Positions 2,191 to 49,272 are shown, numbered from the stretch's first letter. The stretch is DNA of 50,152 nucleotides from Gemmatimonadota bacterium (GCA_041691295.1 JBEPVA010000004.1:1-50152); one strand, 5' to 3'. Numbers and translations: made by a program. The notes: generated by a model not told the origin, from the sequence alone.

Positions 2191-2350
2191 AGTCGAGAGT
2201 CGAGAGACAAGAGTCGAGAGTCAAACGTCACGAATCAGGGCTCGGGTCGTGGGCATAGGATCAGCAGTCCGGGTGGGTGTTGCGACTCTCTTCACATTGC
2301 CTACGGATCGGCTCAAGATCCTCGACCCTCGACCCTCAACTCTCGACTCA
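2191..2350. repeat. Inverted arrays of 7-nt tandem repeats, (gtcgaga)n ... (ctcgacc/tctcgac)n
   Basis: agtcgagagtcgagagacaagagtcgagagtc at 2191-2222; ctcgaccctcgaccctcaactctcgactc at 2321-2349; about 100 nt between the arms. Confidence 0.8.
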
Positions 2351-2440
2351 GTTTCACCCCGCACCATACCGTCCGAAATCGAAACCACCGCTACTTTTGC
2401 GACGTACGCCCCCTGACTCTTCGAGCGAAATTCCAAGCTG

Positions 2441-4798
2441 ATGCTGCTGAATCTTGTCCTGGCGCTGTCCATGCCTGTCGGTGTGCCCGCCGATTCGGTG
2501 CCGCACGCCGACGCCCCGCAGACCTATGATGGCCGAGCCGGGGCGTTGGAAGTCCGTCCGCCGCGGATCGTGGCCCAGCCGGTCATCGATGGCGTGCTCG
2601 ACGAGCCGGTGTGGGCCAGCGCCGACCGACTGGTCGGATTTTCCCAGTACTCGCCCAGCGATGGGGTGGCCGCCTCCGACTCCACCCAGGTGTTGGTCTG
2701 GTACTCCCCCACCGCCATCTACTTCGGCATCCGGGCATTCGAGAGTCACGGCCCGGTCCACGCCACGCTGGCGGACCGGGACAAGATCTTTGCCGACGAC
2801 TACGTCCAGCTGATGCTGGGCACCTTCAACGATGGCCGGCAGGCCATGATGTTCGCGGTCAATCCGCTGGGCGTGCAGGCCGATGGCATCCTGGTCGAGC
2901 GGGGGAATGGAGCGGGCGGCGGCGAGCGTGAACCGGTCGACCTGAGCCCCGATTTCGTGTTCCATTCCAAGGGGCACGTCACCGACTACGGCTACGAAGT
3001 CGAAATCCAGATTCCACTCAAGAGCCTCAGATATCAGTCGGCGGCGGAGCAGACCTGGGGATTGCATGTCCTGAGGACGGTCCAGCACTCGGGATTCGAG
3101 GATTCATGGGCCCCGGCCAGGCGGTCGAGCGCCAGCTTCCTGGGCCAGGCGGGGCAGCTGCAGGGACTCACCGGTTTTCATCGCGGCCTGGTGATGGACG
3201 TGACGCCGGAGGTCACTGGCCGAGCCGATGGCGCTATCCAGAAGAGCGGCAACTGGGGCTACGATGGCAACGGCCCCAACGTCGGCGGTACGGTGCGCTG
3301 GGGCGTGACCAACAGTCTGTCGCTCAATGCCACGGCCAACCCCGATTTTTCCCAGATCGAATCGGACGCCAGCCAGATCAACTTCGATCCCCGGTCGAAC
3401 AACTTCGTGGCGGAGAAGCGGCCCTTCTTTCTCGACGGGCTGGAGCAGTTCAGCACGCCTAACCAGCTGATCTACACCCGCCGCATTGTTCAGCCGATCG
3501 GCGCGCTCAAGTTCACCGGGACCACCGGCGGCACCAACGTTGGGTTCCTCGCCGCGGTGGACAAGACCACGGCCTCGCTGACCGGCAGCCATCCGGACAT
3601 GTTCGCGCTGCGGCTGCAGCAGAACGTCGGGGCCCAGTCCCGCATCGGGCTGGCCACCACCGACCGCCAGGATGGCGACAACTACAACCGGGTCGGCGCG
3701 CTCGATACCCGGCTGGTGTTCGGCAAGATCTACAACCTGGGGCTGCAGGCCGGCGGCAGTGTCACCCGGACCGATGGAGAGACCGTCACCGGCCCCGTCT
3801 GGCAGGGCCGCTTCGTCCGCAACGGTCACACCCTCGGCCTCAACTATGTGTTCAACGGACTGAGCGAGAACTTCTTCGCCCAGAGCGGCTTCATCTCCCG
3901 GCCGGGCATTGCCCATTTCGGACTCGATCACCGGATCTCGGTCTTCGGCCATCAGGGCGGATTCATCGAGCGGGTCGACAACGACGTCCTGTTCGACTGG
4001 ATCTGGAATTATCACGACCTGACCCACGGCAACCGATCGCTCGAACGCAAGAACCACTTCCAGACCACGGCGGGGCTCCGGGGCGGCTGGTCGGTCAGTG
4101 CCGGCGTGTTCATCGAGACGTTCGACTACGACCCCCAGCTGCTGCGCGGCGCCGCGATCGAGCGGCGGGGGCCCGGGGGCACCGTCGATACCGTGCCATT
4201 CCAGCCGGTGCCATCGATCAACAACACCGACTGGCTGCTGCAGGCCGCTACGCCGCAATTCAAGAATTTCTCGGCCAACACCTTCATTCTCTGGGGCAAG
4301 GACGACGATTTCTTCGAGTGGCAGCCCACCAATTTCTTCTTCATCGAGGCCCACACCCAGATCCGGCCCAGCGACCAGTTCCGGATTTCGCTCGACTATG
4401 CCCATATCCAGTACCGGCGCCCGCTCGACGGCAGCCTGGTCGGCCGGTTCCGCATTCCCCGGCTCAAGCTCGAGTACCAGGTGGCGCGGCCCATCTTCGT
4501 CCGCCTGGTCGGCGAATACGTGGCCAGCGAGATCGACAGCCTGCGCGACGATCGCAACGGCGGCGCCGCGATCCTGCTGCCCAATTCCAGCGGGGTCCTC
4601 GAAAAGTCCGTCCCCTACCTGAACAACAGCTTCCGGGTCGACGCGCTGCTGTCGGTGCAGCCCAATCCGGGCACGGTGTTTTTCCTCGGCTACGGCCGGT
4701 TGATGGACGATCCCGAGTCGTTCCGGTTCCGCAACTTGCAGCGGCAGTCGGACGGGTTTTTCCTCAAGATGAGCTACCTGTTTCGGATAGGATCCTGA
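2441..4798 (+). CDS. Exported CBM9-like/DUF5916-type probable outer-membrane protein
   Basis: Signal peptide; IDGVLDEPVW, FAVNPLGVQAD, NPDFSQIESD, EKRPFFLDG; beta-barrel-like C-terminus FFLKMSYLF. Confidence 0.75.
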   Translation: MLLNLVLALSMPVGVPADSVPHADAPQTYDGRAGALEVRPPRIVAQPVIDGVLDEPVWASADRLVGFSQYSPSDGVAASDSTQVLVWYSPTAIYFGIRAFESHGPVHATLADRDKIFADDYVQLMLGTFNDGRQAMMFAVNPLGVQADGILVERGNGAGGGEREPVDLSPDFVFHSKGHVTDYGYEVEIQIPLKSLRYQSAAEQTWGLHVLRTVQHSGFEDSWAPARRSSASFLGQAGQLQGLTGFHRGLVMDVTPEVTGRADGAIQKSGNWGYDGNGPNVGGTVRWGVTNSLSLNATANPDFSQIESDASQINFDPRSNNFVAEKRPFFLDGLEQFSTPNQLIYTRRIVQPIGALKFTGTTGGTNVGFLAAVDKTTASLTGSHPDMFALRLQQNVGAQSRIGLATTDRQDGDNYNRVGALDTRLVFGKIYNLGLQAGGSVTRTDGETVTGPVWQGRFVRNGHTLGLNYVFNGLSENFFAQSGFISRPGIAHFGLDHRISVFGHQGGFIERVDNDVLFDWIWNYHDLTHGNRSLERKNHFQTTAGLRGGWSVSAGVFIETFDYDPQLLRGAAIERRGPGGTVDTVPFQPVPSINNTDWLLQAATPQFKNFSANTFILWGKDDDFFEWQPTNFFFIEAHTQIRPSDQFRISLDYAHIQYRRPLDGSLVGRFRIPRLKLEYQVARPIFVRLVGEYVASEIDSLRDDRNGGAAILLPNSSGVLEKSVPYLNNSFRVDALLSVQPNPGTVFFLGYGRLMDDPESFRFRNLQRQSDGFFLKMSYLFRIGS

Positions 4799-5175
4799 CT
4801 CAGAAGAACTGAACAACACAGAGGCACAGAGGCTTCCCGACACCGGCAAAACCCGAGACGTCAGTTTGGAAATCGCTTTTTTATTCATTAAATGAACCTG
4901 GCTTGACGAACCGGAGGGGGTGAACGCAGGGCACCCTCTGTGCCTCCGTGTTTGAAATGAAGTTGATGATTTGCCTGTTTCGGATAGGATCCTGACTCAG
5001 AAGAACTGAAAAACACAGAGGCACAGAGGCTTCGCGACACCGGCAAAACCCGAGACGTCAGTTTGGAAATCGCCTTTTTATTCATTAAATGAACCTGGCT
5101 TGACGAACCGGAAGCGGTGAACGCAGGGAACCCTCTGTGCCTCCGTGTTTGAAATGAAGTTTCGGATAGAATCCC
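4777..5175. repeat. 197-bp tandem direct repeat (2 copies plus the start of a third), each starting with the 3' end of the upstream gene and containing an internal inverted repeat
   Basis: cctgtttcggataggatcctga at 4777 and 4974; gtttcggatagaatcc at 5159; each unit has aacacagaggcacagagg ... cctctgtgcctccgtgtt. Confidence 0.93.
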
Positions 5176-5224
5176 TCTCCAGCAAATCCTAGATTGTGCC
5201 TCCCAGCTACCCGGAAGGCCATTC

Positions 5225-5704
5225 ATGCAGTATCACATCAGCGGGCTCCCACAGGCGCTTATCGACCAGGTACGCACCACCCACCGCTCTCCCGGTTACG
5301 GCCACCCGGTCCACATCGAGCTCGCCACTGGCACCGGCCCCTGCCGCCAGTGTCTGCAGCCCTTTGCCATCGGCCAGGACCGGCGCATCCTGTTTACCCA
5401 TCGTCCGGTGGCGGATGGCGGCACCATCACTGCACCGGGGCCCGTCTTCATTCACGAGCAGGAGTGCCAGCGCTATGACGCGGCGGCATTTCCAACAGGA
5501 CTGCGGGAATTTCCACTGGCCATCGAGGCGCGGTCGGACCAGAGTCAGGTCCTGGAATGCCGGATCGGATCGGGCCGTGAGGCGGAGCGGATCGTCGCGG
5601 AGTTCCTCGACCGCAAGCCGGTGACCCATCTCTACCTGCGTCACGCCGAGGCGGGGTGTTTCATTGCGCGGGTGGAGCCGGTGGTTGAAGCATCGACGGA
5701 TTGA
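5225..5704 (+). CDS. DUF1203-like protein
   Basis: PCRQCL, GPVFIH..EC, HLYLRHAEAGCF motifs; 159 aa. Confidence 0.7.
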   Translation: MQYHISGLPQALIDQVRTTHRSPGYGHPVHIELATGTGPCRQCLQPFAIGQDRRILFTHRPVADGGTITAPGPVFIHEQECQRYDAAAFPTGLREFPLAIEARSDQSQVLECRIGSGREAERIVAEFLDRKPVTHLYLRHAEAGCFIARVEPVVEASTD

Positions 5705-5772
5705 AGGATTGGGGGGCGCGCGAGAGGTACGTCGTGACCCCACCAATCAGGCAATCCCTCAATCCAACAATT
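5697..5772. repeat. Inverted arrays of 8-nt repeats, (ggattgaa)n ... (caatcc..)n
   Basis: cggattgaaggattgggg ... ccaatcaggcaatccctcaatccaacaat; the left arm contains the upstream stop codon. Confidence 0.65.
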
Positions 5773-5868
5773 TCCTCAGTGCTTGCGTGCATTGCGCCGT
5801 CGGGTAGGTTGGCCCCGGATCGCGCGTCATGGTCCGCCCCGTGGGTTTCCCCATCCAGGCCATTCTCG

Positions 5869-6525: not shown

Positions 6526-6635
6526 GAAGATTCGCTCCTCCCCGACTCTGCCCGACCTCCGGTTCCGCAAAATCCGCTGCCGTGTCCGTTTCACCTGATC
6601 ATAGGGCCAGATATCCGGCCTCAACGAGGACTTCC

Positions 6636-12327: not shown

Positions 12328-12491
12328 GCAGAATCAGCGTTGTCCGGGGGCTGCGCATCAGCGCGCTCATCCTCGCAGCGGGGTGCTCGGACGCGGTGGC
12401 GCTGGCCGTTGCCCAGCAGTACGCGATCGACGGCGCAGCGTTCCGGTCACCGTTCTACTGGGCGGGGTTCGTGCTGGATGGGAGTCTCTGA
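12324..12491 (+). CDS. 55-aa chimeric ORF: lipoprotein signal peptide fused to a copy of the CHAT C-terminal tail
   Basis: Translated by hand: MSRISVVRGLRISALILAAGCSDAVALAVAQQYAIDGAAFRSPFYWAGFVLDGSL*; ATGA overlap with the upstream stop; below the ORF-track size cutoff; could be a remnant. Confidence 0.6.
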   Translation: MSRISVVRGLRISALILAAGCSDAVALAVAQQYAIDGAAFRSPFYWAGFVLDGSL

Positions 12492-12510
12492 CGTGAGGAA
12501 GGATACGATC

Positions 12511-14165: not shown

Positions 14166-16031
14166 ATGCGCTCGATATCTGCGGGATGGCACCTTCTGTC
14201 ACTCTGTGCCGCGGCGTTACTCGGCTGCGCCAGTGGGCCATCAACGGGCCCGAACGGGACCGCCGCGACCCAATTGGTATTCACCGTATCACCGGGACTG
14301 TCGTTCAGCGGCACCAGGATGAGGGCGGTCAAGGTCAGCGCCGAGGACGCCAACGGGCAGGTGGCAACCGATTTCACCGGGGTCATATCGATCGATCTGG
14401 CGCCGCACGCTGCCGGCAAGTCGCTGCGCGGTACGACGATCATCGCGGCCGTCGGGGGCGTGGCCACCTTTACCGATCTCGAGATTGATGGCGCCGCCCC
14501 GGGAAACCTGTTGATTGCCTCGACCCAGGGTCTCACGCCGGCCACCAGCACCGCCTTTGCCAGCCACCTGACCCGGCTGGTGTTTGCGGTTCAGCCTGAT
14601 GACCCCATTGCCGGGACACCCATTGCACCGTCCGTCCAGGTCGCGGCCGTAGACTCCGCTGGCCATATCCTGACTGGCTTCACCGGCCAGGTGAAAATCT
14701 CCGACGAGGACGGGGGGCATTTCAGCGGTCTCACTGGTACCCTCACGGCAACGGCGGTCGCCGGGGTGGCGGCGTTCCCCAACATCATCATTGGCCACAC
14801 TGGCAGCGGGTGGCAGCTCATCGCCAACGCGCCCGGATTCGTCCTCGCTTACAGCGCTCCATTTGCCAGTCACCCGCCCCGGCTGGCCTTCACCGTCCAA
14901 CCTTCGGTCGGCCAGGCAGGGAAGCTGCTGGCGCCGCCCATTCAGGTCACGTTCCAGGATGATTCGGGCCATACCCTCACCGGGTTCACCCGCGGGATCA
15001 CGATCGCGCTGGTGGACAACCCCAGCGGGGGCCACCTGACGGGTGTCACCACGGAGGCGGCGGTCGGCGGTGTCGCCACCTTTGCCGATCTGGCGATTGA
15101 TGTCGTCGGCGCAGGCTACAGGTTGATCGCCAGCAGCGTGGCTCGCGCCGTCGGTGATACCAGCGCGGCATTTGACGTCATTCCCTGTTCACAGACCTGC
15201 TGGACTGTCAAGGCCCCGATACCGATCGCAAGATACGATCTGGGGGTCGGTGTGGTGCAGAACGTCCTCTACGCGGTGGGCGGAGCCACAGAACCCTACG
15301 GTGAGGGGATCGTAGCCAGCGTCGATGCCTACGACCCGGCGACCGACAGCTGGACCACGCGGGCGCCGATGCCAACGGCGCGAACCGGCGTCGGAGTCGG
15401 GGTCGTCGACGGGGTGCTCTACGCAGTCGGGGGTTCCAGCGCGACCGCCCTGTCCGGAGTGGCCGAGGCCTATGACCCGGCCACTGACACGTGGACCACC
15501 AAGGCGCCGATGCCGACCCCCCGCTATGGGCTGGGGGTCGCCGTCGTCGATGGTGTGCTTTACGCGGTGGGAGGATCTGACAACAGCGGCCTCTCGACGG
15601 TTGCGGAGGCCTATGACCCAGCGACCGACAGTTGGACCGCCAAGGCCTCAATGCCGACTCCGCGCTCTCGCCTGGGGGTCGGTGTCCTCAACGGTGTTCT
15701 CTACGCGGTGGGTGGATATACCGGCGCCGGCTATTCAGGGGCGGTCGAAGCCTACGACCCCGCGACCAACCGGTGGACCGCCAAAGGGTCGATGCCGAAC
15801 CCGACGATTGAACTGGGAGTCGGCGTCCTCAATGGAGTCCTCTACCAAGTGGGTTTGACAGACTACCGCAACGGGGCGCTTGAGGCCGACGCCTATGACC
15901 CAGTGGTCAATCGCTGGACCGCGCTGGCAACATCGCCCTTGGTGGGCGGCTTGGCCCGTTGGGGCGTCGGGGTGGTCAATGGGGTGCTGTATGTGCCGGG
16001 CCGCCCCGCCACTCTGGCGTTTCAGCCGTAG
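14166..16031 (+). CDS. Lipoprotein with three Ig-like repeats plus a Kelch propeller
   Basis: Lipobox LLGC; three LxFxVxP...GVAxF repeats; six VGVVxGVLYAVGG...AYDPATxxWT repeats; alternative coupled start at 14091. Confidence 0.88.
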   Translation: MRSISAGWHLLSLCAAALLGCASGPSTGPNGTAATQLVFTVSPGLSFSGTRMRAVKVSAEDANGQVATDFTGVISIDLAPHAAGKSLRGTTIIAAVGGVATFTDLEIDGAAPGNLLIASTQGLTPATSTAFASHLTRLVFAVQPDDPIAGTPIAPSVQVAAVDSAGHILTGFTGQVKISDEDGGHFSGLTGTLTATAVAGVAAFPNIIIGHTGSGWQLIANAPGFVLAYSAPFASHPPRLAFTVQPSVGQAGKLLAPPIQVTFQDDSGHTLTGFTRGITIALVDNPSGGHLTGVTTEAAVGGVATFADLAIDVVGAGYRLIASSVARAVGDTSAAFDVIPCSQTCWTVKAPIPIARYDLGVGVVQNVLYAVGGATEPYGEGIVASVDAYDPATDSWTTRAPMPTARTGVGVGVVDGVLYAVGGSSATALSGVAEAYDPATDTWTTKAPMPTPRYGLGVAVVDGVLYAVGGSDNSGLSTVAEAYDPATDSWTAKASMPTPRSRLGVGVLNGVLYAVGGYTGAGYSGAVEAYDPATNRWTAKGSMPNPTIELGVGVLNGVLYQVGLTDYRNGALEADAYDPVVNRWTALATSPLVGGLARWGVGVVNGVLYVPGRPATLAFQP

Positions 16032-16086
16032 CCTGGCGGGCCAACTCACTCGCGACTGCAACCCAATTCTCGGAGGCATTGAGCCC

Positions 16087-17568
16087 ATGTCCACTCGAAT
16101 CCAGCATCGATTTGCCGCCCTTTGTGGCATCCTCGCCACCACGCTCGGCTTGGCGTCATGCTCAAACGACGTACCGACCGCAGTTCAACCAGCACGGGTG
16201 GCCGAGGACCGGATATCCGACGACCGAAGCGCCGTCTGCCACCGTTCAGGGGGCGCCGGCCAGCTCATAGAGGGCACGCCGGCTGAAATGGAGTCTCACC
16301 GGCGCCACGGCGATTACCAGACCAATCTCGTGGTGACCCATGACGCTGATCGGTTCGAAGATGGCCGGCATTTCCGCCGCATCACCGACGCGCTCGCCGC
16401 GGCCAGGGCGGGCCGGCTTGCGCGAGGCGAGTTCAGGGAGGCCGCGTGCCGCATCACAATCACCGTCGCCGCGGGCGTGTTCCGAGGGACCGGCGATTCG
16501 AGCTCCAGTCGGTGGCTCGAGCGCTTCCCGCTCATCGTGGACGTTCCGGACATCACGCTCCGCGGCGCCCTGGTGATGCAACTGGATGCTCACGGCCGCG
16601 CCACCGGGCAGGGGCTCAATGGCGTTGAGACCACGCTTGTTCCGATTCATCCGCTTCCGTCCACTGACGAAGCGACGACCCCGCTCATCCTCGCCAATGG
16701 CCATCCCGGCGGCTCGGCGGGCAACGGCCTCACGGTAGAGGGATTCGTATTCAAGGCAGGCAGGGGGCCGGAGGACGAGGGCGGAGAGGCGGTGTTCGCG
16801 TTGCGAGTCACCGGTCTCACCATCCGAAGCAACCGGATCGAGGGGGGCTTCCTGCAGTCGGTGGATCTTCGCGCGACCAGCGCGGACATCGAGCGCAACC
16901 AACTCAGTGGGACCGTCGGTACCTGTGACATGTGCCTCGCCGGACCTGGGGCCTTTCGCGTCGTCGACAACCAGCTGCTGGCGGGTGGCGTCCCGGGCAT
17001 CACCACGAGTCCCGTGGTGGGTCTCGGAGTGCTGGATGGTGTCGAACCGTACACGCTCCCAGCCACCGCGCTGACGACGGTCGAGATCGGGAACAACGAG
17101 GTGCGCGATCACCTGCGCATCCCGACCGGCACGGGTCTTCGCCTCGAGGCGGTCGGCATCTTCGCGCCGGATGTCCATGGCACGATCCGCGCATCAATTC
17201 ACGACAATCTTCTCGTCAACAACCGCTTCGGGATGATCTTCCACGCCGCGTTTCCAGCACCTGATACGCGACTCAGAGGGGACCTCGACGTGACCCTCAG
17301 TGGCAACGTCATTCAGCAGAGCTGCCAGACGAAGCTGCTGGTGGCGTTCACCCGTCACAAGACCGCGTTCGGGCTGGAAAATGACCCATATCTCCGGAAT
17401 TCGACATACCGAGTGAGGCTGGGAGGGGATATTGAGTGGAGCGACGCGTGGTTCAGCAATCCAGTGGGATTCGGCAACACCCTCGTGGTCGACGGGCACA
17501 CGATCCCGAACGGCACGAGACAGTTCTACAGCGAGGAAACCTGCCCGGGGCTGGCGGCTGCGCCCTGA
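16087..17568 (+). CDS. Lipoprotein with a probable right-handed beta-helix domain
   Basis: Lipobox LASC; VCH...HRRHGD N-terminal motif; Asn-ladder repeats (IRSNRI, IERNQL, IGNNEV, IHDNLL). Confidence 0.7.
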   Translation: MSTRIQHRFAALCGILATTLGLASCSNDVPTAVQPARVAEDRISDDRSAVCHRSGGAGQLIEGTPAEMESHRRHGDYQTNLVVTHDADRFEDGRHFRRITDALAAARAGRLARGEFREAACRITITVAAGVFRGTGDSSSSRWLERFPLIVDVPDITLRGALVMQLDAHGRATGQGLNGVETTLVPIHPLPSTDEATTPLILANGHPGGSAGNGLTVEGFVFKAGRGPEDEGGEAVFALRVTGLTIRSNRIEGGFLQSVDLRATSADIERNQLSGTVGTCDMCLAGPGAFRVVDNQLLAGGVPGITTSPVVGLGVLDGVEPYTLPATALTTVEIGNNEVRDHLRIPTGTGLRLEAVGIFAPDVHGTIRASIHDNLLVNNRFGMIFHAAFPAPDTRLRGDLDVTLSGNVIQQSCQTKLLVAFTRHKTAFGLENDPYLRNSTYRVRLGGDIEWSDAWFSNPVGFGNTLVVDGHTIPNGTRQFYSEETCPGLAAAP

Positions 17569-17710
17569 AGGATTGTCGGATTGATGGATTGAAGGATTGG
17601 TGGGATCGTGCGGCGTGACTCGTCCTCCCTCGAATCCGACAATCCTTCGATCCGGAAATCTCATTCTTGGTCGATGGTCGAGAGTCGTAAATCGTGGGTC
17701 GGGGGTCGCT
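17567..17710. repeat. Inverted 8-nt repeat arrays followed by a 7-nt (ggtcga.)n array
   Basis: gaaggattgtcggattgatggattgaaggattgg ... gaatccgacaatccttcgatcc; then ggtcgatggtcgagagtcgtaaatcgtgggtcgggggtcg. Confidence 0.7.
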
Positions 17711-18052: not shown

Positions 18053-18220
18053 ATGAACTCGACCCATCGGCTGGAGTACAACGGCGGTCTGCGCTGACAG
18101 GATGTCTGGCTCAGTCACCCGGCGGGATTCGGGAACCGGGTCATCGTGAACGGCCGCATCGTTCCCAATGGCCAGCGGACGTTCTAGGCAGCGGGCCACT
18201 GTCCCCACCTGGGTCACTGA
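18053..18220 (+). pseudogene. Degenerate paralogous copy of the beta-helix lipoprotein C-terminus
   Basis: NSTHRLEYNGGLR*QDVWLSHPAGFGNRVIVNGRIVPNGQRTF*AAGHCPHL versus NSTYRVRLGGDIEWSDAWFSNPVGFGNTLVVDGHTIPNGTRQFYSEETCPGL; stops at 18095 and 18185 align with W and Y. Confidence 0.85.
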
Positions 18221-18223
18221 GCT

Positions 18224-18306
18224 GGTCGGATGGGCGGAACCCTGGTAGGACTGCGCCTTGACCTGGTATCGCGAGTTGAGTCTCGCCCGTCCGCCCGTCC
18301 GCCCCC
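18224..18306. repeat. Inverted 8-nt repeats (cgcccgtc)n at a gene end
   Basis: ggtcggatgggcgga ... cgcccgtccgcccgtccgcc abutting the stop of 18307-18756. Confidence 0.5.
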
Positions 18307-18756
18307 CTACTGCACGGCCGCCTCTTTCCCTCGCGCGGTATCGGGTACCACGTTGTATGCCAGCGAATCCCCCTTGATCGCGCGGAGGGCCTGCTTGGCC
18401 AGGTGGGCAATGTCGTCGTTGGGATGATCTTCCATCTTGGTGAGTGACGGGATGGCGGCGGCGGCTGCCGGACCAATCTCGCGCAGCGCCACCTCGATCG
18501 GGTACAACACCACCGGCTGCTCACCGGGCTGGTTGAGCGCCTCGATCAGCGCCGGCACGGCAGGGGCGCCGGCCTTGCCGAACCAGGCAATCTCATACGC
18601 CGCGTCATGTCGGGTGGCGGGGGCCTGGCCCTTGAGGTCTGCGATCCAGGCGCTCAGCGGGCGCCCGTTGCCCATCGGGTCCTTGGCCGGCTTCTGGGCC
18701 AGGACCGGGGTGGCGAGTGCCGCAATGAATGCAACGGTGACAAAGGTGGTGCGCAT
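18307..18756 (-). CDS. Small exported HEAT/PBS-lyase-repeat protein
   Basis: Signal peptide; AVPALIEAL, ALREIGPAAAAAIPSL, AKQALRAI repeats. Confidence 0.75.
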   Translation of the reverse strand: MRTTFVTVAFIAALATPVLAQKPAKDPMGNGRPLSAWIADLKGQAPATRHDAAYEIAWFGKAGAPAVPALIEALNQPGEQPVVLYPIEVALREIGPAAAAAIPSLTKMEDHPNDDIAHLAKQALRAIKGDSLAYNVVPDTARGKEAAVQ

Positions 18757-28274: not shown

Positions 28275-30189
<1,915 letters not shown>

Positions 30190-31228: not shown

Positions 31229-31241
31229 GGTGCGGCTGAAG

Positions 31242-31292
31242 CGGGAAGGGAGGGGGGGACCATTGTTCCCCTCCTCCCTCCTCCTTTCTCCG
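31242..31292. repeat. Purine/pyrimidine inverted short-repeat hairpin
   Basis: cgggaagggaggggggga ... tccccctcctccctcctcctttctccg. Confidence 0.45.
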
Positions 31293-31324
31293 CTTGACGT
31301 CACTCCACTTAATTCACCCACCTG

Positions 31325-42954: not shown

Positions 42955-42965
42955 CGATGCTCCGT

Positions 42966-44579: not shown

Positions 44580-44782
44580 GCAGTGACTGTCGGTAGTCAC
44601 CCCCGTTAAGTCAAATCAGCAGCCCGAATGTCGGACAGGCAGATAGCCGAGGAGCTGCGCTGTCAGGATGGCCAGTCGCTGGCGTTTCTCGGCGGGACTC
44701 TGGCTGCGCAGAGGGCGCACGAAGCGAGGCCGCACTCAAGGGTCAGCCTGGGTTGAATCACTATATAAGGAGAGCAAGTACC

Positions 44783-45223
44783 ATGACTGTCATGCCGCGC
44801 GGTCCGGTCCAGAACGGCGACCTGTTGGGATTCCGGACCCTGAACCGGGTGTTCGATGAGGCGTTCAACCTGTCCGATCACGCCGCTCCCACCGCCTGGG
44901 TGCCGGCCACCGACATCAGCGAGAGCGCCGAGGGCGTCACGCTGTCGCTCGACCTGCCCGGCGTCGAGGCCAACGGCGTGAAGATTTCGCTGGAGAATCG
45001 GGTGCTGACGATCTGCGGTGAGAAGCAGCGCAAGAGTGCGGACAAGGGCGAAGGGGGCTACCGATTCGAGCGGGCCTTCGGATCGTTCGAGCGGACCTTC
45101 ACCCTGCCGGGCACGCTGGAGACCGACAAGGTCGAGGCCTCCTATGAGAACGGCGTGCTGTCCATTCTCCTGCCGCGGGCCGAGAAGGCCAAGGCGCGCG
45201 AGATCTCGATTACAGCGCGGTAG
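44783..45223 (+). CDS. Hsp20/alpha-crystallin small heat-shock protein
   Basis: WVPATDISE, DLPGV, ERAFGSFERTFTLP, ASYENGVLSILLP; AAGGAG RBS. Confidence 0.93.
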   Translation: MTVMPRGPVQNGDLLGFRTLNRVFDEAFNLSDHAAPTAWVPATDISESAEGVTLSLDLPGVEANGVKISLENRVLTICGEKQRKSADKGEGGYRFERAFGSFERTFTLPGTLETDKVEASYENGVLSILLPRAEKAKAREISITAR

Positions 45224-45225
45224 TA

Positions 45226-45324
45226 GGAGCGGAGAGAGGAGAGGGGAGAGCAAAGAGGGGACCGGCACTTCCTCTCTCCACTCTCCCCTCTTCGCTTTTT
45301 CCTATCGCCTCTCGTCTCTCGCCT
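45226..45324. repeat. Inverted 7-nt purine/pyrimidine repeat arrays between convergent genes
   Basis: ggagcggagagaggagaggggagag ... cctctctccactctcccctct ... cctctcgtctctcgcc. Confidence 0.6.
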
Positions 45325-45329
45325 ACAGT

Positions 45330-46781
45330 TCAATACCACCCGATCGGCGCCTCATCGAGATTGATGTAGATCTGCTTGGTCTCGAGATATTCCTCGACTC
45401 CCCAATGGCCCAGCTCCCGGCCAAAGCCCGACATCTTGTAGCCGCCCCACGGCGCTTCGAGCATGGTGGGCTGCATATGGTTGACCCAGACCACCCCCGC
45501 CTCGAGCTGCTTGACCACCCGGAAGGCCTTGAAGATATCCCGGGTCCAGACCGCAGCGGCCAGGCCGAACGGGGTGGCGTTGGCAATCTCGAGCGCCTGC
45601 GCTTCGTCCTTGAACGGTATGACGCTCATGACTGGTCCGAAGATCTCTTCCTGCGCAATCCGGGCGTTGTTGTCGACATCATAGAAGATCGTGGGTTCGA
45701 CGTACCAGCCCTTGTCGAATTTGGGCACGCCGCCGCCGGCCGCGACCTTCGCTTCCTGCTTGCCGATTTCCTGGTACTTCCGGACCCGGTCCCGCTGCTC
45801 GGCGCTGATCAGCGGGCCCATCTTGGTTTCCCGATCAATGCCGGGTCCCAGCTTGATCGTCTTGGCCTTGGCGGCACAGGCATCGACGAATTTCTGGTAG
45901 ATCTCCTGCTGCACCAGCACCCGGCTGCCGGCCGAACAGACTTCGCCCTGGTTGATGAAGGTGCCGAACAGGGCGCCATCGACGGCGGCCTCGAAGTCGG
46001 CATCGGCAAAGAAGATGTTGGGTGACTTGCCGCCGAGTTCCAGCGAGACCCGCTTGAGCTGATCGGCCGCGCTCCGCATGATGATCTTGCCGACTTCGGC
46101 GGAGCCGGTGAAGGCGATCTTGCGGACATCAGGGTGGGCCACCAGCGGAGCACCGGCGTCAGGACCCATTCCGGTGATGATGTTCACCACACCCGGCGGC
46201 AGGCCGACCGCTTCGAAGTCCTCCGCCAGCGCCAGCAGCGACAGCGGAGTCTGCTCGGCCGGCTTGATGACCACCGTGCAGCCGGCGGCGAGGGCGGGAC
46301 CGAGTTTCCAGCTGGCCATGGCCAGCGGATAGTTCCACGGGATGATCTGTCCCGCCACACCCATCGGCTCCTTGACCGCCATGACCATCGCGTTGGTCGG
46401 GACCGGAATGACCTCCCCGTTGATCTTGGTGGCCAGCCCGCCGTAGTACTCGAAGCAGACCGCCGTGTCGTCCATGTCGTACTCGGACTCGACGATCGGC
46501 TTGCCGGAGTTCAAGGTCTCGATCTTTGCCAGTTCATCCTTCCGGGCCCGGATCCGCTCGGCCAGCCGAAACAGGATCCGGCCCCGGTCCTGCGCGCTGG
46601 TCTGCTTCCAGCCGCCGTAGAACGCCCTCTTGGCGGCCTCGACCGCGCGGGCCACGTCCTTCGCGTCTCCTGCGGGGCAGGTGGCGATGACCTGCTCGGT
46701 GGCGGGATCGTAGACCGGGAAGGTCTTGAGAGACGATGCCGAGGTGAAGCGACCGTCGATATACATCTGATATTCGCGCAT
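45330..46781 (-). CDS. Aldehyde dehydrogenase (betaine/aminoaldehyde dehydrogenase-like)
   Basis: IIPWNYP, KPAEQTP, FTGS, LELGGKSP, NQGEVCSAG, EEIFGP; start moved to ATG 46781. Confidence 0.93.
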   Translation of the reverse strand: MREYQMYIDGRFTSASSLKTFPVYDPATEQVIATCPAGDAKDVARAVEAAKRAFYGGWKQTSAQDRGRILFRLAERIRARKDELAKIETLNSGKPIVESEYDMDDTAVCFEYYGGLATKINGEVIPVPTNAMVMAVKEPMGVAGQIIPWNYPLAMASWKLGPALAAGCTVVIKPAEQTPLSLLALAEDFEAVGLPPGVVNIITGMGPDAGAPLVAHPDVRKIAFTGSAEVGKIIMRSAADQLKRVSLELGGKSPNIFFADADFEAAVDGALFGTFINQGEVCSAGSRVLVQQEIYQKFVDACAAKAKTIKLGPGIDRETKMGPLISAEQRDRVRKYQEIGKQEAKVAAGGGVPKFDKGWYVEPTIFYDVDNNARIAQEEIFGPVMSVIPFKDEAQALEIANATPFGLAAAVWTRDIFKAFRVVKQLEAGVVWVNHMQPTMLEAPWGGYKMSGFGRELGHWGVEEYLETKQIYINLDEAPIGWY

Positions 46782-46790
46782 TGGCGGTTC

Positions 46791-47313
46791 GGAGTTAGGA
46801 GTTGGGAGTTCACTCGGCGGAATATTGATGTATCCGCGCGAGATTCCGGTTACCTCGAGAGACTCTCCAGGTGCATGATGGTGTGTGAGCAACTTTAGAT
46901 CTCTGCTGGTTTGGCAACGAGCCTTCGCCTTTGGGCTTCAGGTCACCCGAGCGACTGATTCCTCTCCGCGCGCTGAACGGTTTGGAATCACCGCTCAGAT
47001 CAGGCGGGCCGCCGTATCGGCGCCCTCGAACATTGCAAAAGGCTCTCGCCGGAGCGGAAATCGTGAACTGATCTACTTCCTGAATGTCGCTCGAGGATCG
47101 ATCGGCGAGCTGGAATGCCAACTCCAGTTTGCCCGAGAGCTTGGCTATCTGACTGGTGAGAGTTGGTCGGCACTGGACCGTGAGGCGCAGGAAATCAGCC
47201 GGATGCTGGCCAAATTGATCAGCTACCTGCGACAGAGTCAGAGTGGGGGCCAGCATGGCCACAAACGCACCGGTCGGCCCCCAACTCCCAACTCTAACTC
47301 CCAACTCCTAACT
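46791..47313. mobile_element. Inverted heptamer-repeat-bounded cassette carrying a four-helix-bundle gene, antisense within an operon
   Basis: Left arm ggagttaggagttgggagtt (46791-46810) is the reverse complement of the right arm aactcccaactcctaact (47296-47313); mobility is inferred. Confidence 0.6.
46885..47298 (+). CDS. Four-helix-bundle protein (23S rRNA IVP/Avd-like family); stop codon apparently lost, so the end is approximate
   Basis: FRSLLVWQRA, ERFGITAQIRRAAVSAPSNIAKG, FLNVARGSIGELECQL, LGYL; the frame stays open to 48555 antisense to the next gene. Confidence 0.85.
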
Positions 47314-48897
47314 GTCCTTCAAGATCTCCCGCGCCGCATTATACCCGCACGCCCCCATCACCCCACCGCCGGGATGGGTGGCCGCACCGCACAGGTAGAG
47401 CCCCTTTACTGGGGTGCGATAATCCGCGTAGCCCGGTACCGGCCGCATGAACGACAGGCTCGACAGCGACATGGTGCCCTGCATGATGTTGCCACCGGTC
47501 AGGCCATACCGCTTCTCGATATCCGCGGGGCTCAGGACCTCATAATTGAGCACCGACTTCCGGAAATTGGGCGCGTACTCGGTCATGATGTCGATGCACC
47601 GCTCGGCGTAGCGCTTCTTGTTCTCTTCCAGCGTGCCCGCGTCATCGGCCAGCTTGTACGGGAAGTACTGGGTGAACATCGACATTACGTGCTTGCCCTT
47701 GGGCGCCACGGTGTCGTCGAGGGACGAGGGAATCGTGGCCTCGATGATCGGGTTGTCCGAGATGTAGCCATACTTGGCCTTGTCGTAGGCCTTTTCGATG
47801 TAGTTCCGGTCGGGACAGAGGTGAATGGTGCCCCGATGCTGCGGGCCCGGCGTGTTGCCCGGCAGGCAGGTGAAGTCCGGCACTTCACTCAGCGCCAGGT
47901 TGACCTTGCAGCTGCCACTGGCATAGTCGAGATGCTGGACCGACTCGACGAAATCCGCCGGCAGATCCTTCTGGTCCATCAGCCGCAGGAAGGTCACATT
48001 GGCGTCGAGACAGGAGATGACCCGCTTGGCGCTGTACTCGGTGCCATCGGCCAGGGCCACACCGGTGGCCTTGTTGTCCTTGACCACGATGTGTTTCACC
48101 GTGGCCCCGGTCTTGATCTCGGCGCCCTTTTCCCTGGCCGCACTGGCAATCGCGTTGCTCAGCCCGCCCATCCCGCCGCGGACATAGCCCCAGACTCCAC
48201 GTACCCCGTCACACTCGCCCATGACGTGATGGAACAGCACATAGGCGGTGCCGGGCATCGAGGGAGTGGCAAAGGCGCCGATGATCGCGTCGGTGGCAAT
48301 GGTGGCCTTGAGCTGCTCCGACTCGAACCAGCGGTCCAGGATCGGGTTGGCGGCGCCGGTCAGGATCTCGATGGCCTTCTGGCCATCGGTACCCAGCTTC
48401 TTGAAGGCCAGTCCGAGCTTGAGCATGGCGATCAGATTGCCGGGCGCCATCGACCAGGGATTGGGCGGGGTCTGGATCAGGGTGGGCTCGAGGAAATCGG
48501 CCACCCGCTCCAGCATGGCTTCATACTTGGGAAGATTCTCGGCGTCCTTCTTTGAGAACTTGGCAACTTCCCGGTGGGTCATCTCCTTGTCCGGGCCCAT
48601 CAGCAGGTAGCGGCCGTCCGGAAAGGGAGTAAAGCTCGACGGGCTCCGCGGCAGCATGGCAAAGCCATGGCGCTTGAGCTCGAGGTCCCGGATGATCTCG
48701 GGCCGGAACAGGCTGTTGACGTAGCTGGCGGTGGACACCTTGAACCCCGGCCACAGCTCCTCGGTGACGGCGCAGCCGCCCACCAAGTCTCGGCGCTCGA
48801 GGACAAGGACCTTCTGACCGGCGCGGGCCAGGTAGGCAGCGGTAACCAGGCCGTTGTGGCCGGCACCGATGATGACGGAGTCGTAGGTGGTTGGCAT
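47308..48897 (-). CDS. Phytoene desaturase-family FAD oxidoreductase (PYROXD2-like)
   Basis: IGAGHNGLV.AAYLA, GGCAVTEE, GGMG, GLTGGNI, YRTPVKGLYLCGAATHPGGGVMG. Confidence 0.88.
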   Translation of the reverse strand: MPTTYDSVIIGAGHNGLVTAAYLARAGQKVLVLERRDLVGGCAVTEELWPGFKVSTASYVNSLFRPEIIRDLELKRHGFAMLPRSPSSFTPFPDGRYLLMGPDKEMTHREVAKFSKKDAENLPKYEAMLERVADFLEPTLIQTPPNPWSMAPGNLIAMLKLGLAFKKLGTDGQKAIEILTGAANPILDRWFESEQLKATIATDAIIGAFATPSMPGTAYVLFHHVMGECDGVRGVWGYVRGGMGGLSNAIASAAREKGAEIKTGATVKHIVVKDNKATGVALADGTEYSAKRVISCLDANVTFLRLMDQKDLPADFVESVQHLDYASGSCKVNLALSEVPDFTCLPGNTPGPQHRGTIHLCPDRNYIEKAYDKAKYGYISDNPIIEATIPSSLDDTVAPKGKHVMSMFTQYFPYKLADDAGTLEENKKRYAERCIDIMTEYAPNFRKSVLNYEVLSPADIEKRYGLTGGNIMQGTMSLSSLSFMRPVPGYADYRTPVKGLYLCGAATHPGGGVMGACGYNAAREILKDS

Positions 48898-48925
48898 TCG
48901 GAACTCGAAGTGAGAGACGAAAAAG

Positions 48926-49003
48926 CCGTTAATTGTGAGCTGTTAGCCGTTCGCAAGCAGTCAGTAGCCAGTAGCTAACGGCTACTCACTAACGGCTAAT
49001 GGC
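48926..49003. repeat. Inverted 7-nt repeat arrays, (gccgtta)n ... (taacggc)n
   Basis: gccgttaattgtgagctgttagccgttcgc ... gctaacggctactcactaacggctaatggc. Confidence 0.65.
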
Positions 49004-49009
49004 TGCACC

Positions 49010-49129
49010 TCACCATTCGTCCTTGTCGAGCCGGAGACCCACGCCGCCGGCGGCATCCCAGGTCACCGCGGCCGAGGTGCCGGCGGTGCGGATCAGGGAG
49101 GTGCGGCGGAGCGGGGAGCTGGAATGCAT
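49010..49129 (-). pseudogene. Possible orphan C-terminal fragment of an ABC ATPase TOBE-like domain
   Basis: MHSSSPLRRTSLIRTAGTSAAVTWDAAGGVGLRLDKDEW*; coding-like GC3; resemblance by eye only. Confidence 0.3.
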
Positions 49130-49180
49130 ACGGAGCTAAGCTAACGGCGGCGGTGATAGGCGGAAGGGGGCCTGAACTGC

Positions 49181-49272
49181 GGGAGAGGGGAGGGAGAAGA
49201 AGGGAGATGGGAATTGCATGACTGCCACGATCCTGCTCTTGCCCTCTCCTCTCCCCCTGCTTCCATCTCCCG
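49181..49272. repeat. Inverted 7-nt purine/pyrimidine repeat arrays at a gene end
   Basis: gggagaggggagggagaagaagggagatggga ... ccctctcctctcccctgcttccatctcccg. Confidence 0.6.

Follow-up and report, generated by a model that had tools for sequence, protein, structure and literature searches.

Paired heptamer arrays at gene ends of a Gemmatimonadota bacterium: a probable family of insertion elements built like 23S rRNA intervening sequences

Small palindromes whose arms are short tandem-repeat arrays are scattered through the genome of a Gemmatimonadota bacterium, and they very probably represent one family of discrete insertion elements with the build of an intervening sequence. We lean towards the fuller view that they are palindromic insertions with the construction of ORF-bearing 23S rRNA intervening sequences, and that their RNA stems may be processed by RNase III. 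An element consists of a short tandem array, usually of about three to five heptamer copies and less often of octamers, followed by a loop of some 5-700 nt and then by the array in reverse complement. In the long form, which lies between protein genes, the loop carries a four-helix-bundle gene of the PF05635 family together with a promoter-like region; the short forms would be gene-less members of the same population.

The elements were noticed in a sequence-only reading of the window, that is, the whole stretch of 50,152 nt that was analyzed. From this interpretation the common family, the kinship of gene-less and gene-carrying pairs and the filled and empty sites were supported, the idea that gene-less pairs are scars was not supported, and an enrichment at GxxExxY and GIY-YIG genes was found in part.

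Hairpin sites in the window and in the genome

Tandem arrays were called with TRF, and inverted arms were identified by a repeat search of the window (Table 1). The claimed architecture was real: every site was present within a few bases of its stated position, and 11 of 11 formed inverted pairs. Nine sites (2191 not among them) were folded as RNA; long stems formed in all nine, the z-scores ranging from -2.2 to -4.7. The fold of 49175-49278 was the weakest and was equaled by 6 of 200 shuffles; for 18215-18310, 1 of 200 shuffles folded equally well. Periodicity was weak at sites 18224, 31242 and 49181, and purine and pyrimidine runs served as arms at the latter two. The first unit of the 5695 hairpin encloses the TGA stop of the 5225-5704 gene, and the array of the 17566-17660 hairpin matches many places in the congener G003. 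According to our own gene calls, the 2191 element is flanked by divergent genes, 1208-2146 (minus) and 2441-4798 (plus).

Table 1. Features of the window. Complementarity of the inverted arms is given in percent; RNA fold z-scores are relative to dinucleotide shuffles.
Feature	Position	Strand	Description	Inverted arms	Fold z-score
Gene-less hairpin element	2191-2349		Arms (AGTCGAG)n 2191-2222 and (CCTCGAC)n 2320-2349; loop ~100 nt	2191-2218 / 2321-2348, 28 nt, 82%	
Conserved-terminal-repeat hairpin, copy 1	4814-4953		23-nt terminal inverted repeat; loop 94 nt	4815-4838 / 4929-4952, 88-91% (both copies)	-2.8
Conserved-terminal-repeat hairpin, copy 2	5011-5150		Second copy of the 4814-4953 element	5011-5033 / 5128-5150	
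Short hairpin	5695-5760		(GGATTGAA)-type arms		-4.0 (-34.3 kcal/mol)
Octamer-arm hairpin	17566-17660		(TGAAGGAT) arms; opens with TGA stop of 16198-17568 gene	17579-17608 / 17631-17660, 73%	-3.8
Weak member	18222-18305		(CGCCCGTC)x2.6 array 18284-18304, imperfect pairing with 18226-18241		-2.4 (18215-18310)
Gene-less hairpin	28717-28780		(AGTCGAG)n arms; 9-nt loop	28718-28744 / 28754-28780, 27 nt, 81%	-4.7
Purine-arm/pyrimidine-arm hairpin	31239-31295		13 nt past stop of 30221-31228 gene; 7-nt periodicity weak		-3.2
(GGAGAGG)-type hairpin	45225-45324		Between convergent genes; starts 1 nt after TAG stop 45221-45223	45227-45261 / 45284-45318, 74%	-3.3
Gene-carrying cassette	46787-47313		Left arm (GGAGTTA/G)n 46787-46810; right arm (CCCAACT)n 47280-47313	46793-46810 / 47296-47313, 18 nt, 100%, 485 nt apart	
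ATTCCGGTTACC promoter-like motif	46843-46854	+	~30 nt upstream of GTG start; picked by eye		
Four-helix-bundle gene	46885-47280	+	PF05635 (23S rRNA intervening-sequence protein, S23p, Avd-like)		
Gene-less hairpin	48926-49004		(GCCGTTA)n arms; 5-nt loop	48938-48968 / 48974-49004, 71%	-4.0
Purine-arm/pyrimidine-arm hairpin	49179-49272		GGGAGAG/GGGAGAT type; abuts stop of 49273-50052 gene (minus)		-2.2 (49175-49278)

Genome-wide, inverted period-7 and period-8 pairs were far commoner than in shuffled DNA, in line with what the sequence-only reading had led us to expect. An independent scan of the 3.93-Mb genome detected 105 period-7 and 21 period-8 hairpins with periodic arms, compared with 3 and 3 in the shuffle, and TRF called 972 period-7 and 399 period-8 arrays, compared with 143 and 168 after block-wise dinucleotide shuffling. 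Our crude gene calls span 90.8% of the DNA, and 78% of the period-7/14 arrays had their centers outside them. Of 980 arrays, 227 had an inverted partner no more than 700 nt away (controls: direct 40, reversed 6, complement 47), and comparison by consensus unit gave 126 inverted versus 28 direct partners. At this strict threshold 753 of the 980 arrays had no detected partner; on visual inspection, pairing with downstream sequence was seen for most of 12 such 'solitary' arrays. The median arm length was 23 nt and the median complementarity 90%. These results support the assignment of the window sites to a single family that spans the genome and shares one geometry. The host is a soil bacterium, and the spacers between its genes hold many such small hairpins. 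Among related genomes the array density differed strongly. The array-rich genomes in the sample all had PF05635 genes, and four genomes (G064, G025, G082 and G042) had many PF05635 genes and few arrays.

The observation that the units differ by site was correct within the window, but not for the genome, where a limited vocabulary recurs: 239 units account for 848 sites, and some 20 heptamers are used again and again, the commonest of them at 72 sites. Eight of nine heptamer-armed cassettes used one of the 19 commonest units. The two kinds of element, with and without a gene, thus draw on one heptamer vocabulary, which supports the proposed kinship between them. The cacagagg sites, by contrast, had been counted as further members of the varied-unit set and form a family of their own, apart from the heptamer arrays, in which the sequence of the arms is conserved. 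Their 23-nt terminal inverted repeat has the consensus AAACACAGAGGCACAGAGGGTTC, which holds the octamer CACAGAGG twice; it had 41 matches in the genome versus 0 in shuffled DNA, and these formed 18 pairs. The two window copies sit in a 197-bp tandem duplication (4777-5161, 96% identical).

The pairs were polar and anchored at gene ends. The G-rich arm was the 5' arm in 102 of 121 pairs, and this polarity was symmetric on both strands. Within -15 to +40 nt of a stop on the same strand, 316 arrays started in the G-rich sense versus 82 in the C-rich sense. Of the former, 70 overlap the stop codon, as they begin 1-3 nt ahead of its end. Hence, the reported position at gene boundaries, with several window arrays overlapping or abutting stops, was recovered as a genome-wide excess.

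Gene-carrying cassettes and orthologous sites

One pair in the window had been said to enclose a four-helix-bundle gene, and a PF05635 match at 46900-47211 (E 6.2e-32) bore this out. The encoded protein also matched the Xanthomonas S23p structure Xcc0516 (PDB 2gsc_A, E 3.5e-20). Both neighboring genes (45330-46781 and 47308-48897) are on the minus strand, so the PF05635 gene is antisense to both; the arms of the cassette abut the start codon of the former and hold the TAG stop of the latter. In this genome the gene has no in-frame stop and its open frame continues to 48555 (558 aa), and the orthologue in the congener G002 has a 139-aa open frame. By eye, 9 of 11 cassettes of this genome were seen to have a GGT(T/A)A(C/T)-like hexamer 52-92 nt upstream of the Pfam match.

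Each of the 12 PF05635 genes in the genome was accompanied by TRF arrays, nine of them on both sides and three on one side, and for two of these three a degenerate complement was seen by eye on the other side. In a search of relatives, 10 of 12 PF05635 loci, one of them this genome's own, had inverted arrays on both sides; the other two were a locus cut by a contig end and one with a one-sided array. In public genomes, arrays flanked the gene on both sides at 7 of 10 loci, including Phycisphaeraceae and Anaerolineaceae records, and at a Nitrospirota locus a complement was seen by eye; two of these ten loci duplicate arrays counted before. Array-flanked homologues were thus found in relatives and in three other phyla, in most of those examined. 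At further loci of the same order, 17 of 20 had an inverted repeat across the gene that scored above 18, the maximum over 200 random segments. In the array-poor genome G025 the cassette arms were long non-periodic inverted repeats, showing that periodic arms are not obligatory for cassettes. GxxExxY and GIY-YIG genes often lay between inverted repeats, but these repeats were not periodic, and the octamer repeat was present at only one of four GxxExxY genes.

Gene-less forms were about tenfold more frequent than gene-carrying forms. The loops of 66 gene-less heptamer or octamer hairpins contained no detectable remnant of a four-helix-bundle gene and were unrelated to each other, which argues against their being scars. 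The loops of the 18 conserved-terminal-repeat hairpins were likewise mutually unrelated, and no whole element was repeated in either set. The four-helix-bundle paralogues shared at most 45-72% amino acid identity. Together with the unrelated loops, this gives no sign of recent copy-and-paste. No transposase was tied to the elements, and the Y1-transposase-like genes of the genome were not flanked by arrays.

Comparison with congeners showed that, at orthologous sites, a cassette or a gene-less hairpin is either there or missing as a unit. The filled and empty sites that had been predicted were found: five cassette sites were empty in a congener. Two of them kept a gene-less heptamer hairpin, and three were without any array; in these three, therefore, the arms came or went with the gene. 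The 46787 cassette was filled in G002, with one extra unit, and in G001, with GGTCGGA arms, and G003 had a gene-less 119-nt (AGTCGTG)n hairpin at this site. The C14 cassette was absent in G003, where the flanking genes overlap (TGATG), and about 8 nt of this junction stand on both sides of the cassette in our genome. The C54 cassette was absent without an array in G003, and the same was true for C1:21768 in G001. Cassettes were stable between this genome and G002, the DNA of which is ~91-93% identical.

The gene-less hairpins at 2191, 48926 and 49181 were each absent in a congener. The 2191 element was missing from the orthologous 58-nt spacer of G001; G002 and G001 shared the (GCCGTTA)n unit at 48926, and the corresponding 50-nt spacer of G003 contained no array; and at 49179 a (GGTGAGA)n hairpin was present in G001 and a 9-nt spacer in G003. 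Both G002 and G001 retained the 84-nt site at 28717, in G001 with other units. The 31239 hairpin was present in G002, and G001 had a shorter G/C hairpin there. At 45225 all four congeners had a hairpin, and the units varied (GGAGAGG, GGCGAAA and GGGAGCG types). At 45225, 46787 and C37:9589 both arms had changed together, with complementarity kept. Copy numbers differed between this genome and G002 (3.6 versus 8.4, and 8 versus 6), in agreement with the description of the arrays as register-slippable.

Mode of action and alternative explanations

If the elements are palindromic insertions, their arms, once transcribed, would base-pair to form a long duplex, which RNase III could cleave. Cleavage would excise the insert or separate it from the transcript, and the upstream message would then end in a hairpin; this would account for the tolerance of insertions at gene ends and inside operons. 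The arrays may arise and turn over by replication slippage, and the complementarity of the arms would be maintained by selection or by arm-to-arm correction. By analogy with known intervening sequences, RNase III processing of the stem is a tentative candidate for the mode of action. The missing G-U excess among stem mismatches, described below, weighs against this view of the elements, as do the absence of signs of recent copying, the many arrays without a detected partner, the stability of cassettes between this genome and G002, the non-periodic arms in G025 and the lack of large inserts in the 23S rRNA genes of relatives.

The start of arrays at stop codons could also mean that the hairpins are host 3'-end structures, either terminators without U-tracts or REP-like message-stabilizing stem-loops, which undergo slippage in place and into whose existing loops four-helix-bundle genes insert secondarily. 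Consistent with this, hairpins per spacer were about half as common at divergent (11/323) as at convergent spacers (19/259), the sites 28717 and 45225 kept a hairpin of altered sequence in three or four congeners, and two cassette sites were a gene-less hairpin in a congener. Nevertheless, we consider this origin unlikely. The 2191 element and ten further pairs, 11 of 121 in total, lie between divergent genes, and on a given strand a T-rich tail follows only 6 of the 121, which makes canonical termination by the hairpins unlikely. Stem mismatches in the sense strand showed no G-U preference (139 G-U versus 118 A-C, p = 0.21), which counts against a strongly selected RNA stem because such a stem would be expected to show one. 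In addition, hairpins were gained and lost among congeners, three of the five empty cassette sites lacked a hairpin, and exact units recurring at up to 72 sites are not predicted by evolution in place.

Polymerase slippage has been considered for heptanucleotide repeats before, an idea credited to reference 33 in the discussion of PMC4692102. The elements might be a functionless by-product of a 7-nt slippage bias, by which any inverted repeat expands in both arms. The variation of copy number among close relatives, the strongly different array densities of related genomes and the non-periodic cassette arms of the array-poor G025 would fit, as would the order of variant units: in a test of low power, it was mirrored between arms (p <= 0.05) in only 1 of 76 informative pairs. 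However, slippage does not account for the excess of inverted over direct partners, the fixed polarity, the highly non-random vocabulary, the tight anchoring at stop codons, or the joint change of both arms between species, and we regard this explanation as improbable. A role as DNA appears very improbable. The elements would then act as G-quadruplexes or i-motifs, as cruciforms, or as binding sites, possibly of the pentameric four-helix-bundle protein itself, and would affect supercoiling, replication or transcription. The missing strand-specific G-U signature, the polarity on both strands, the presence of PF05635 genes in all sampled array-rich genomes and the G-quadruplexes formed in vitro by Xanthomonas and Nostoc heptamers (PMC4692102, in its available text) point in this direction. 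But a GGG or CCC run was present in the unit of only 264 of 972 arrays (27%), and therefore quadruplexes cannot be the general explanation; moreover, G064, G025, G082 and G042 combine many PF05635 genes with few arrays.

Comparison with known systems

REP/BIME sequences and the REPINs of RAYT transposases are abundant extragenic palindromes at gene ends, inverted pairs of which form long hairpins. Message stabilization and termination have been proposed as roles of REP/BIME, and their variant population resembles a mutational network. The elements described here share the position at gene ends, the hairpin-forming inverted pairs and the network-like population of variants. However, REP is one conserved palindrome of 20-40 nt, whereas the arms here are tandem arrays of many unit families, and only the cacagagg family has a conserved arm. 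Unlike in REPIN/RAYT systems, the Y1-transposase-like genes have no flanking arrays. Cyanobacterial STRRs comprise several tandem heptamer families dispersed in the intergenic DNA of one genome, in which they resemble the present arrays; to our knowledge, they have not been described as inverted pairs or gene carriers.

Heptamers have also been described by Rehm et al. 2015 (PMC4692102). The available text reports GGGAATC in Xanthomonas campestris and X. citri and GGGGA(C/T)T in Nostoc/Anabaena, and mentions three repetitive heptanucleotides for Calothrix. These repeats are intergenic, with the G-rich strand just downstream of an ORF on the coding strand, form 70-75 cases per genome of two convergent arrays able to form stem-loops, are depleted between divergent ORFs and vary in length and sequence among close relatives; their function is given as unknown. 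The arrays studied here agree in their intergenic location, inverted pairs, G-rich strand downstream of ORFs, rarity at divergent spacers and variability among close relatives. In contrast to one unit per genome, however, many units occur here, and 73% of the arrays cannot form the G-quadruplexes favored in that paper. Its main text contains neither xcc0516, S23 nor four-helix, and the available passages do not connect the repeats with four-helix-bundle genes. Xcc0516, the S23p protein of solved structure, belongs to the same Xanthomonas species as these heptamers.

Paired heptamer arrays in Xanthomonas and heptamers in the stem of the Coxiella intervening sequence have both been published; a link between the two was not found in print. 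According to the available text of PMC4990558, the terminal inverted repeats of the helix-45 intervening sequence of Coxiella burnetii form a 28-bp stem, and the loop contains an S23p ORF. Three GACAGAT heptamers, the number of which varies among strains, stand in tandem at the 5' end of the intervening sequence. RNase III cleavage within the stem, at the start of the first heptamer repeat, was shown experimentally, and the element is regarded as selfish. The gene-carrying cassettes share with the 23S rRNA intervening sequences of C. burnetii, Leptospira and others a PF05635/S23p ORF in the loop of a long inverted-repeat stem. They differ in location, being flanked by protein-coding genes, to which they are often antisense, instead of interrupting rRNA: a search of the window revealed no rRNA, and the four 23S rRNA genes found across 13 relatives (2949-2983 nt) had no large insert. 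Furthermore, in contrast to the Coxiella element as described there, both arms are whole arrays with a vocabulary of about 20 units, and the gene-less forms predominate.

Inverted arrays in the window and across the genome

All 11 sites in the window at which the sequence-only reading had noticed a short tandem array facing its reverse complement were recovered, the arrays by TRF and the inverted arms by repeat search. Periodicity was clear at sites 2191, 5697, 17566, 28717, 45225, 46787, and 48926 and faint at 18224, 31242, and 49181, which are hairpins of a purine arm and a pyrimidine arm. RNA folding of nine window sites, a set without site 2191, gave a long stem at each, with z-scores of -2.2 to -4.7.

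The same architecture was quantified throughout the draft genome of which the window is contig C4 (G000; 3.93 Mb, 65.6% G+C, 354 contigs). TRF detected 972 period-7 arrays versus 143 after dinucleotide shuffling in 500-nt blocks, and 399 period-8 arrays versus 168; excesses at periods 6, 9, and 12 lay in coding DNA. The centres of 762 of the 980 merged period-7/14 arrays fell outside the gene calls, which are crude (3727 genes, 90.8% of the G000 DNA covered). An inverted partner within 700 nt, with an ungapped score of at least 12, was found for 227 of the 980 arrays, while the direct, reversed, and complement controls yielded 40, 6, and 47. Pairing by consensus unit gave 126 inverted pairs (113 of them of period 7) versus 28 direct pairs. 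A hairpin scan independent of TRF found 881 hairpins versus 294 in the shuffle; 105 had arms of period 7 and 21 had arms of period 8, compared with 3 and 3 in the shuffle. The counts of arrays and of periodic-arm hairpins therefore identify 7 as the dominant period. The observation made in the window is real and strongly non-random.

The anatomy was characterized with 121 strict pairs of G000. Their loops range from less than 10 to about 700 nt, mostly 10-160 nt, the median arm is 23 nt long, and median complementarity is 90%. The 5' arm contains more G than C in 102 pairs, less in 18, and equal numbers in one; because the element is a palindrome, this G-rich-first polarity is valid on both strands. 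Between co-directional genes lie 60 pairs, between convergent genes 19, and between divergent genes 11, with 18 inside gene calls and 13 at contig ends; G000 has 1236, 259, and 323 spacers longer than 30 nt in the first three classes, respectively. Among arrays whose start lies from -15 to +40 nt relative to a stop codon on the same strand, 316 were G-rich in the sense strand versus 82 C-rich, and 70 of the 316 overlap the stop codon, starting 1-3 nt before its end. With gapped alignment, a complementary arm within 200 nt was found for 130 of 423 stop-anchored arrays versus 4 with shuffled downstream sequence, and most of 12 apparently solitary arrays inspected by eye do pair. The number of 121 pairs is thus conservative. 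Folding of solitary arrays with 120 nt of downstream sequence gave a mean paired fraction of 0.57 versus 0.49 for shuffled sequence, a difference too weak for counting partners.

Pairs of reverse polarity, with the C-rich arm first and a long loop (e.g. G000 contig C8, 19663-20410), are mostly the outer arms of two hairpins that have a common unit and flank an ordinary gene. Elements next to each other thus often have the same unit.

According to the sequence-only reading, the units differ between sites. This holds within the window; genome-wide it does not, as 848 sites with two or more exact tandem copies of a heptamer use 239 canonical units (shuffle: 313 sites, 195 units). The commonest units occur at 72, 52, 43, 32, 28, 25, and 23 sites, and many are one substitution apart. 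The two cacagagg sites of the window are tandem copies within a 197-bp duplication and belong to a separate family with a conserved 23-nt terminal repeat, for which 41 arm matches were found in G000 and none in the shuffle when up to 5 substitutions were allowed. The arms form 18 hairpins whose loops span 12 to 400 nt; one of these hairpins encloses a GxxExxY (PF13366) gene. Three genomes elsewhere in the order also have octamer arrays of the cacagagg kind flanking four-helix-bundle genes.

Three further repeats were observed. An additional array, (GGGGGGCA)x3.2, lies at the end of the window (50075-50100), so that any partner would fall outside it; it has matches at many places in the congeners G002 and G003 and forms an inverted pair on G000 contig C21 (15350/15492). 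The long ORF at 14274-16031 contains a 141-bp tandem repeat (15461-15845; 2.7 copies, 73% matches), which has the look of a repeated protein domain and does not belong to the hairpin family. G000 contig C135 begins with 53 consecutive G (1-53), most likely a sequencing or assembly artefact.

Four-helix-bundle genes between the arms

One of the 11 window sites, situated between two protein-coding genes, carries a PF05635 four-helix-bundle ORF in its loop; the other ten lack such an ORF.

Features of the gene-carrying cassette in the window
Feature	Position	Properties
Four-helix-bundle ORF	46885-47280	PF05635, E 6.2e-32; PDB 2gsc_A (Xcc0516, Xanthomonas campestris), E 3.5e-20
Cassette arms	46793-46810 / 47296-47313	100% complementary; longer degenerate arrays 46787-46810 and 47280-47313

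Xcc0516 is described as a homopentamer of four-helix bundles, in a family with the Avd protein of diversity-generating retroelements, DGRs (PMC10053308, PMC4990558). G000 contains 12 PF05635 genes, nine with TRF arrays on both sides and three with an array on one side; at two of these three a degenerate complement was recognized by eye on the other side. A search of relatives found the family in 26 of 31 genomes (a tally including the unpublished G016), and inverted arrays flanked the gene on both sides at 10 of 12 loci, one of which is G000's own. Arrays on both sides were also present at 7 of 10 public-genome loci, including records titled Phycisphaeraceae and Anaerolineaceae; this is a small cross-phylum sample derived from a three-sequence alignment, and two of the ten repeat arrays already counted. 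At a Nitrospirota public locus the arms pair by eye. At 17 of 20 further loci from seven genomes, an inverted repeat across the gene scored above 18, the maximum among 200 random G000 segments. In one relative, G025, six arms of 28-75 nt are non-periodic and some are alike between copies. The long stem is therefore the constant feature, and periodicity is a property of some genomes.

Eight G000 cassettes lie between co-directional genes; six of them have the ORF antisense to the neighbouring genes, and two have it in sense orientation. A GGTTAC-like motif, picked by eye, precedes the Pfam match by 52-92 nt in 9 of 11 G000 cassettes; a search for six-mers enriched upstream of the four-helix-bundle ORFs gave nothing convincing. 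In the window cassette, the frame of the ORF has no in-frame stop in or after the right arm and stays open for 558 codons (46885-48555), antisense through the next gene. The G002 orthologue (locus L013) has an open frame of 139 codons, and its right arm differs in length by one base. By our reading, this difference would place a TAA of the arm in frame, in which case the arm would give the cargo its stop codon and a small indel would remove it.

Gene-less and gene-carrying forms are one population, and in 8 of 9 heptamer-armed cassettes the unit belongs to the 19 commonest. Decayed cargo in the loops was considered and rejected: an HMM of the G000 four-helix-bundle proteins, applied to 66 loops, matched only the true cassettes, the next E-value being 0.17. 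The loops of these 66 heptamer or octamer elements are unrelated to each other, as are the 18 loops of the cacagagg family, and the four-helix-bundle paralogues of G000 share at most 45-72% amino-acid identity. Together, these results argue against decayed cargo and against recent copying.

Other small genes lie within inverted repeats in G000. Several GIY-YIG and GxxExxY genes stand between repeats scoring 15-22 (random 95th percentile, 12), and two Y1-transposase-like (PF01797) genes (C135:67-704 and C1:16336-16639) lie within non-periodic inverted repeats of their own, of 55 nt and 26 nt. Stem-bounded cassettes with small nuclease-like genes seem to be a general habit of this genome.

Orthologous sites and array density in related genomes

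Orthologous sites were examined in three congeners, of which G002 has about 91-93% DNA identity and G001 and G003 have about 70-83%. The 84-nt hairpin at site 28717 is retained in G002 and also, with different unit variants, in G001, and at site 45225 all four genomes have a hairpin with differing units. GCCGTTA at site 48926 is retained in three genomes and missing from G003; at site 49181 the unit differs in G001, and G003 has a 9-nt spacer; and at site 2191 G001 has no hairpin.

Gene-carrying sites also varied. The window cassette site is filled in G002, with one extra unit, and in G001, with GGTCGGA arms, and it holds a 119-nt gene-less AGTCGTG hairpin in G003. A gene-less hairpin, with GGGAGCA units, also occupies the site of the cassette at C37:9589 in G003. 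No array at all was found in G003 at the site of the C14 cassette, where the flanking genes overlap (TGATG); about 8 nt of this stop/start junction occur on both sides of the G000 cassette, a duplication that keeping both genes intact would itself demand. The other sites are too diverged for a target-site duplication to be judged. Arrays are likewise absent from the site of the C54 cassette in G003 and from that of the C1:21768 cassette in G001. Array copy numbers differed between G000 and G002 (3.6 versus 8.4, and 8 versus 6). At 2 of 7 sites shared with G001, C14 and C37:9589 (G001 loci L146 and L148), the strands of the matches showed that the cargo is flipped relative to G000, as expected if the inverted arms recombine. 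This behaviour is characteristic of discrete insertions whose arms remain complementary through slippage, flipping, and turnover.

Four G002 contigs (C190, C111, C148, and C130) end exactly at arrays. Short-read assemblies are broken at the arrays, so that counts from draft genomes are probably too low.

Array density was compared with PF05635 content in 24 genomes of the phylum from outside the window's genus, using stretches picked regardless of four-helix-bundle matches. The 12 genomes without a PF05635 match had 0 to 12.6 period-7 arrays per 100 kb, the G000 shuffle level being about 3.6. Every genome with at least 13 arrays per 100 kb has at least three PF05635 genes, and four genomes with 3-9 of these genes are poor in arrays. 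Spearman coefficients, uncorrected for kinship, were 0.38 when all arrays were counted (p = 0.06) and 0.62 when complex units were. The family itself occurs in 51 of 71 genomes (a tally including the unpublished G073). The genome-level link between arrays and PF05635 is suggestive only.

Mechanism and relation to known systems

The G000 hairpins were compared with several known kinds of element. Intrinsic terminators consist of a G+C-rich stem followed by a U-tract; a T-rich tail, scored as at least 5 T in the 8 nt after the 3' arm on either strand, follows only 6 of the 121 pairs, so that a canonical, rho-independent terminator is unlikely. REP/REPIN-RAYT systems have one conserved palindrome per family and a flanked cognate Y1 transposase, whereas G000 uses 239 units. 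A period-7 array lies about 200 nt downstream of one PF01797 match, on C1; none of the four matches is bracketed by heptamer arrays or by the cacagagg repeat, and a link to RAYT/REP was rejected. MITEs have a conserved internal sequence and a related autonomous element with a transposase, whereas the loops of G000 are unrelated and its cassettes lack a transposase. The DGR accessory protein Avd is accompanied by an adjacent reverse transcriptase and by template and variable repeats; no reverse transcriptase lies beside a cassette. An origin of the arrays by a telomerase-like or other reverse transcriptase was considered because of the inward-pointing G-rich polarity and the kinship with Avd. 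It was dropped for lack of support: the single PF00078 match of G000 lies on another contig, and its N-terminal translation reads like that of a group II intron protein.

A published analogue is the 23S rRNA intervening sequence of Coxiella, whose terminal inverted repeats are described as forming a 28-bp stem with an S23p ORF in its loop; RNase III cuts within this stem, and the 5' end of the intervening sequence carries three tandem GACAGAT heptamers in strain-variable number (PMC4990558). Because this is a direct analogue, we infer that the arms of the G000 elements would pair in the transcript and that the stem would then be cut by RNase III. Cleavage would set the insert apart, and the upstream message would be left with a hairpin. 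A purely RNA-level role is counted against by two observations. G-U and A-C mismatches in the stems showed no bias on the sense strand (139 versus 118, p = 0.21; a smaller ungapped set agrees), and a test of low power, which considered unit phase and no indels, found variant units in mirrored order between the arms in 1 of 76 pairs.

A broader reading is put forward here as speculative and on balance improbable. The cassettes of the S23p/Avd family and the gene-less hairpins would be the autonomous and non-autonomous forms of one widespread selfish system that inserts at gene junctions and is rendered harmless by its own RNase III-cleavable stem. The pentameric protein would recognize or maintain the arms by their 7-nt periodicity and not by their sequence, and the system would be the source of the long-unexplained bacterial heptanucleotide excess (Xanthomonas, Nostoc, and others) and of the rRNA intervening sequences.

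The observations touch three separate puzzles of the literature: the excess of heptanucleotide repeats in some bacteria, the paired GGGAATC arrays of Xanthomonas, which have no known function, and the ORF-bearing 23S intervening sequences, whose S23p protein has no known role. In G000, features of all three occur in one element family, gene-carrying and gene-less, present or absent at orthologous sites. Should RNase III cut these stems, a processing site would terminate about 8% of the G000 genes (316 stop-anchored arrays per 3727 gene calls). In Gemmatimonadota and further little-studied phyla this would bear on gene-end annotation, on operon structure, and on the stability of messages, and it would offer a testable job for a protein family with solved structures and no function.

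The Xanthomonas repeat is described by Rehm et al. (2015) as one unit, GGGAATC, in 70-75 convergent inverted pairs per genome, near the upstream ORF and depleted between divergent ORFs, variable between close relatives and without known function (PMC4692102). The G000 arrays are likewise intergenic and often convergent inverted pairs near the 3' end of an ORF. The Xanthomonas-type unit has a G-tract able to form a G-quadruplex, whereas only 264 of the 972 G000 arrays (27%) have a GGG or CCC run in the unit, which rules out the G-quadruplex as a general explanation. The main text of that paper does not mention xcc0516, S23, or four-helix proteins, and a literature search, supplementary files excepted, found no paper linking inverted heptamer arrays with PF05635 genes that lie outside rRNA.

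The ORF-bearing intervening sequence sits inside the 23S rRNA gene, and the window cassette does not. Rfam gave no family match in the window or in 12 related cassette loci, no 23S match was found in the G000 assembly, and the 23S genes found in 4 of 13 relatives (2949-2983 nt) contain no large insert. The window cassette has both structural traits of these intervening sequences, complementary termini that form a long stem and, within the loop, an S23p/PF05635 ORF. The G000 elements join two kinds that are already known, heptamer repeat pairs and ORF-bearing intervening sequences, and their interest lies in this joining and in their clear presence or absence at orthologous sites.
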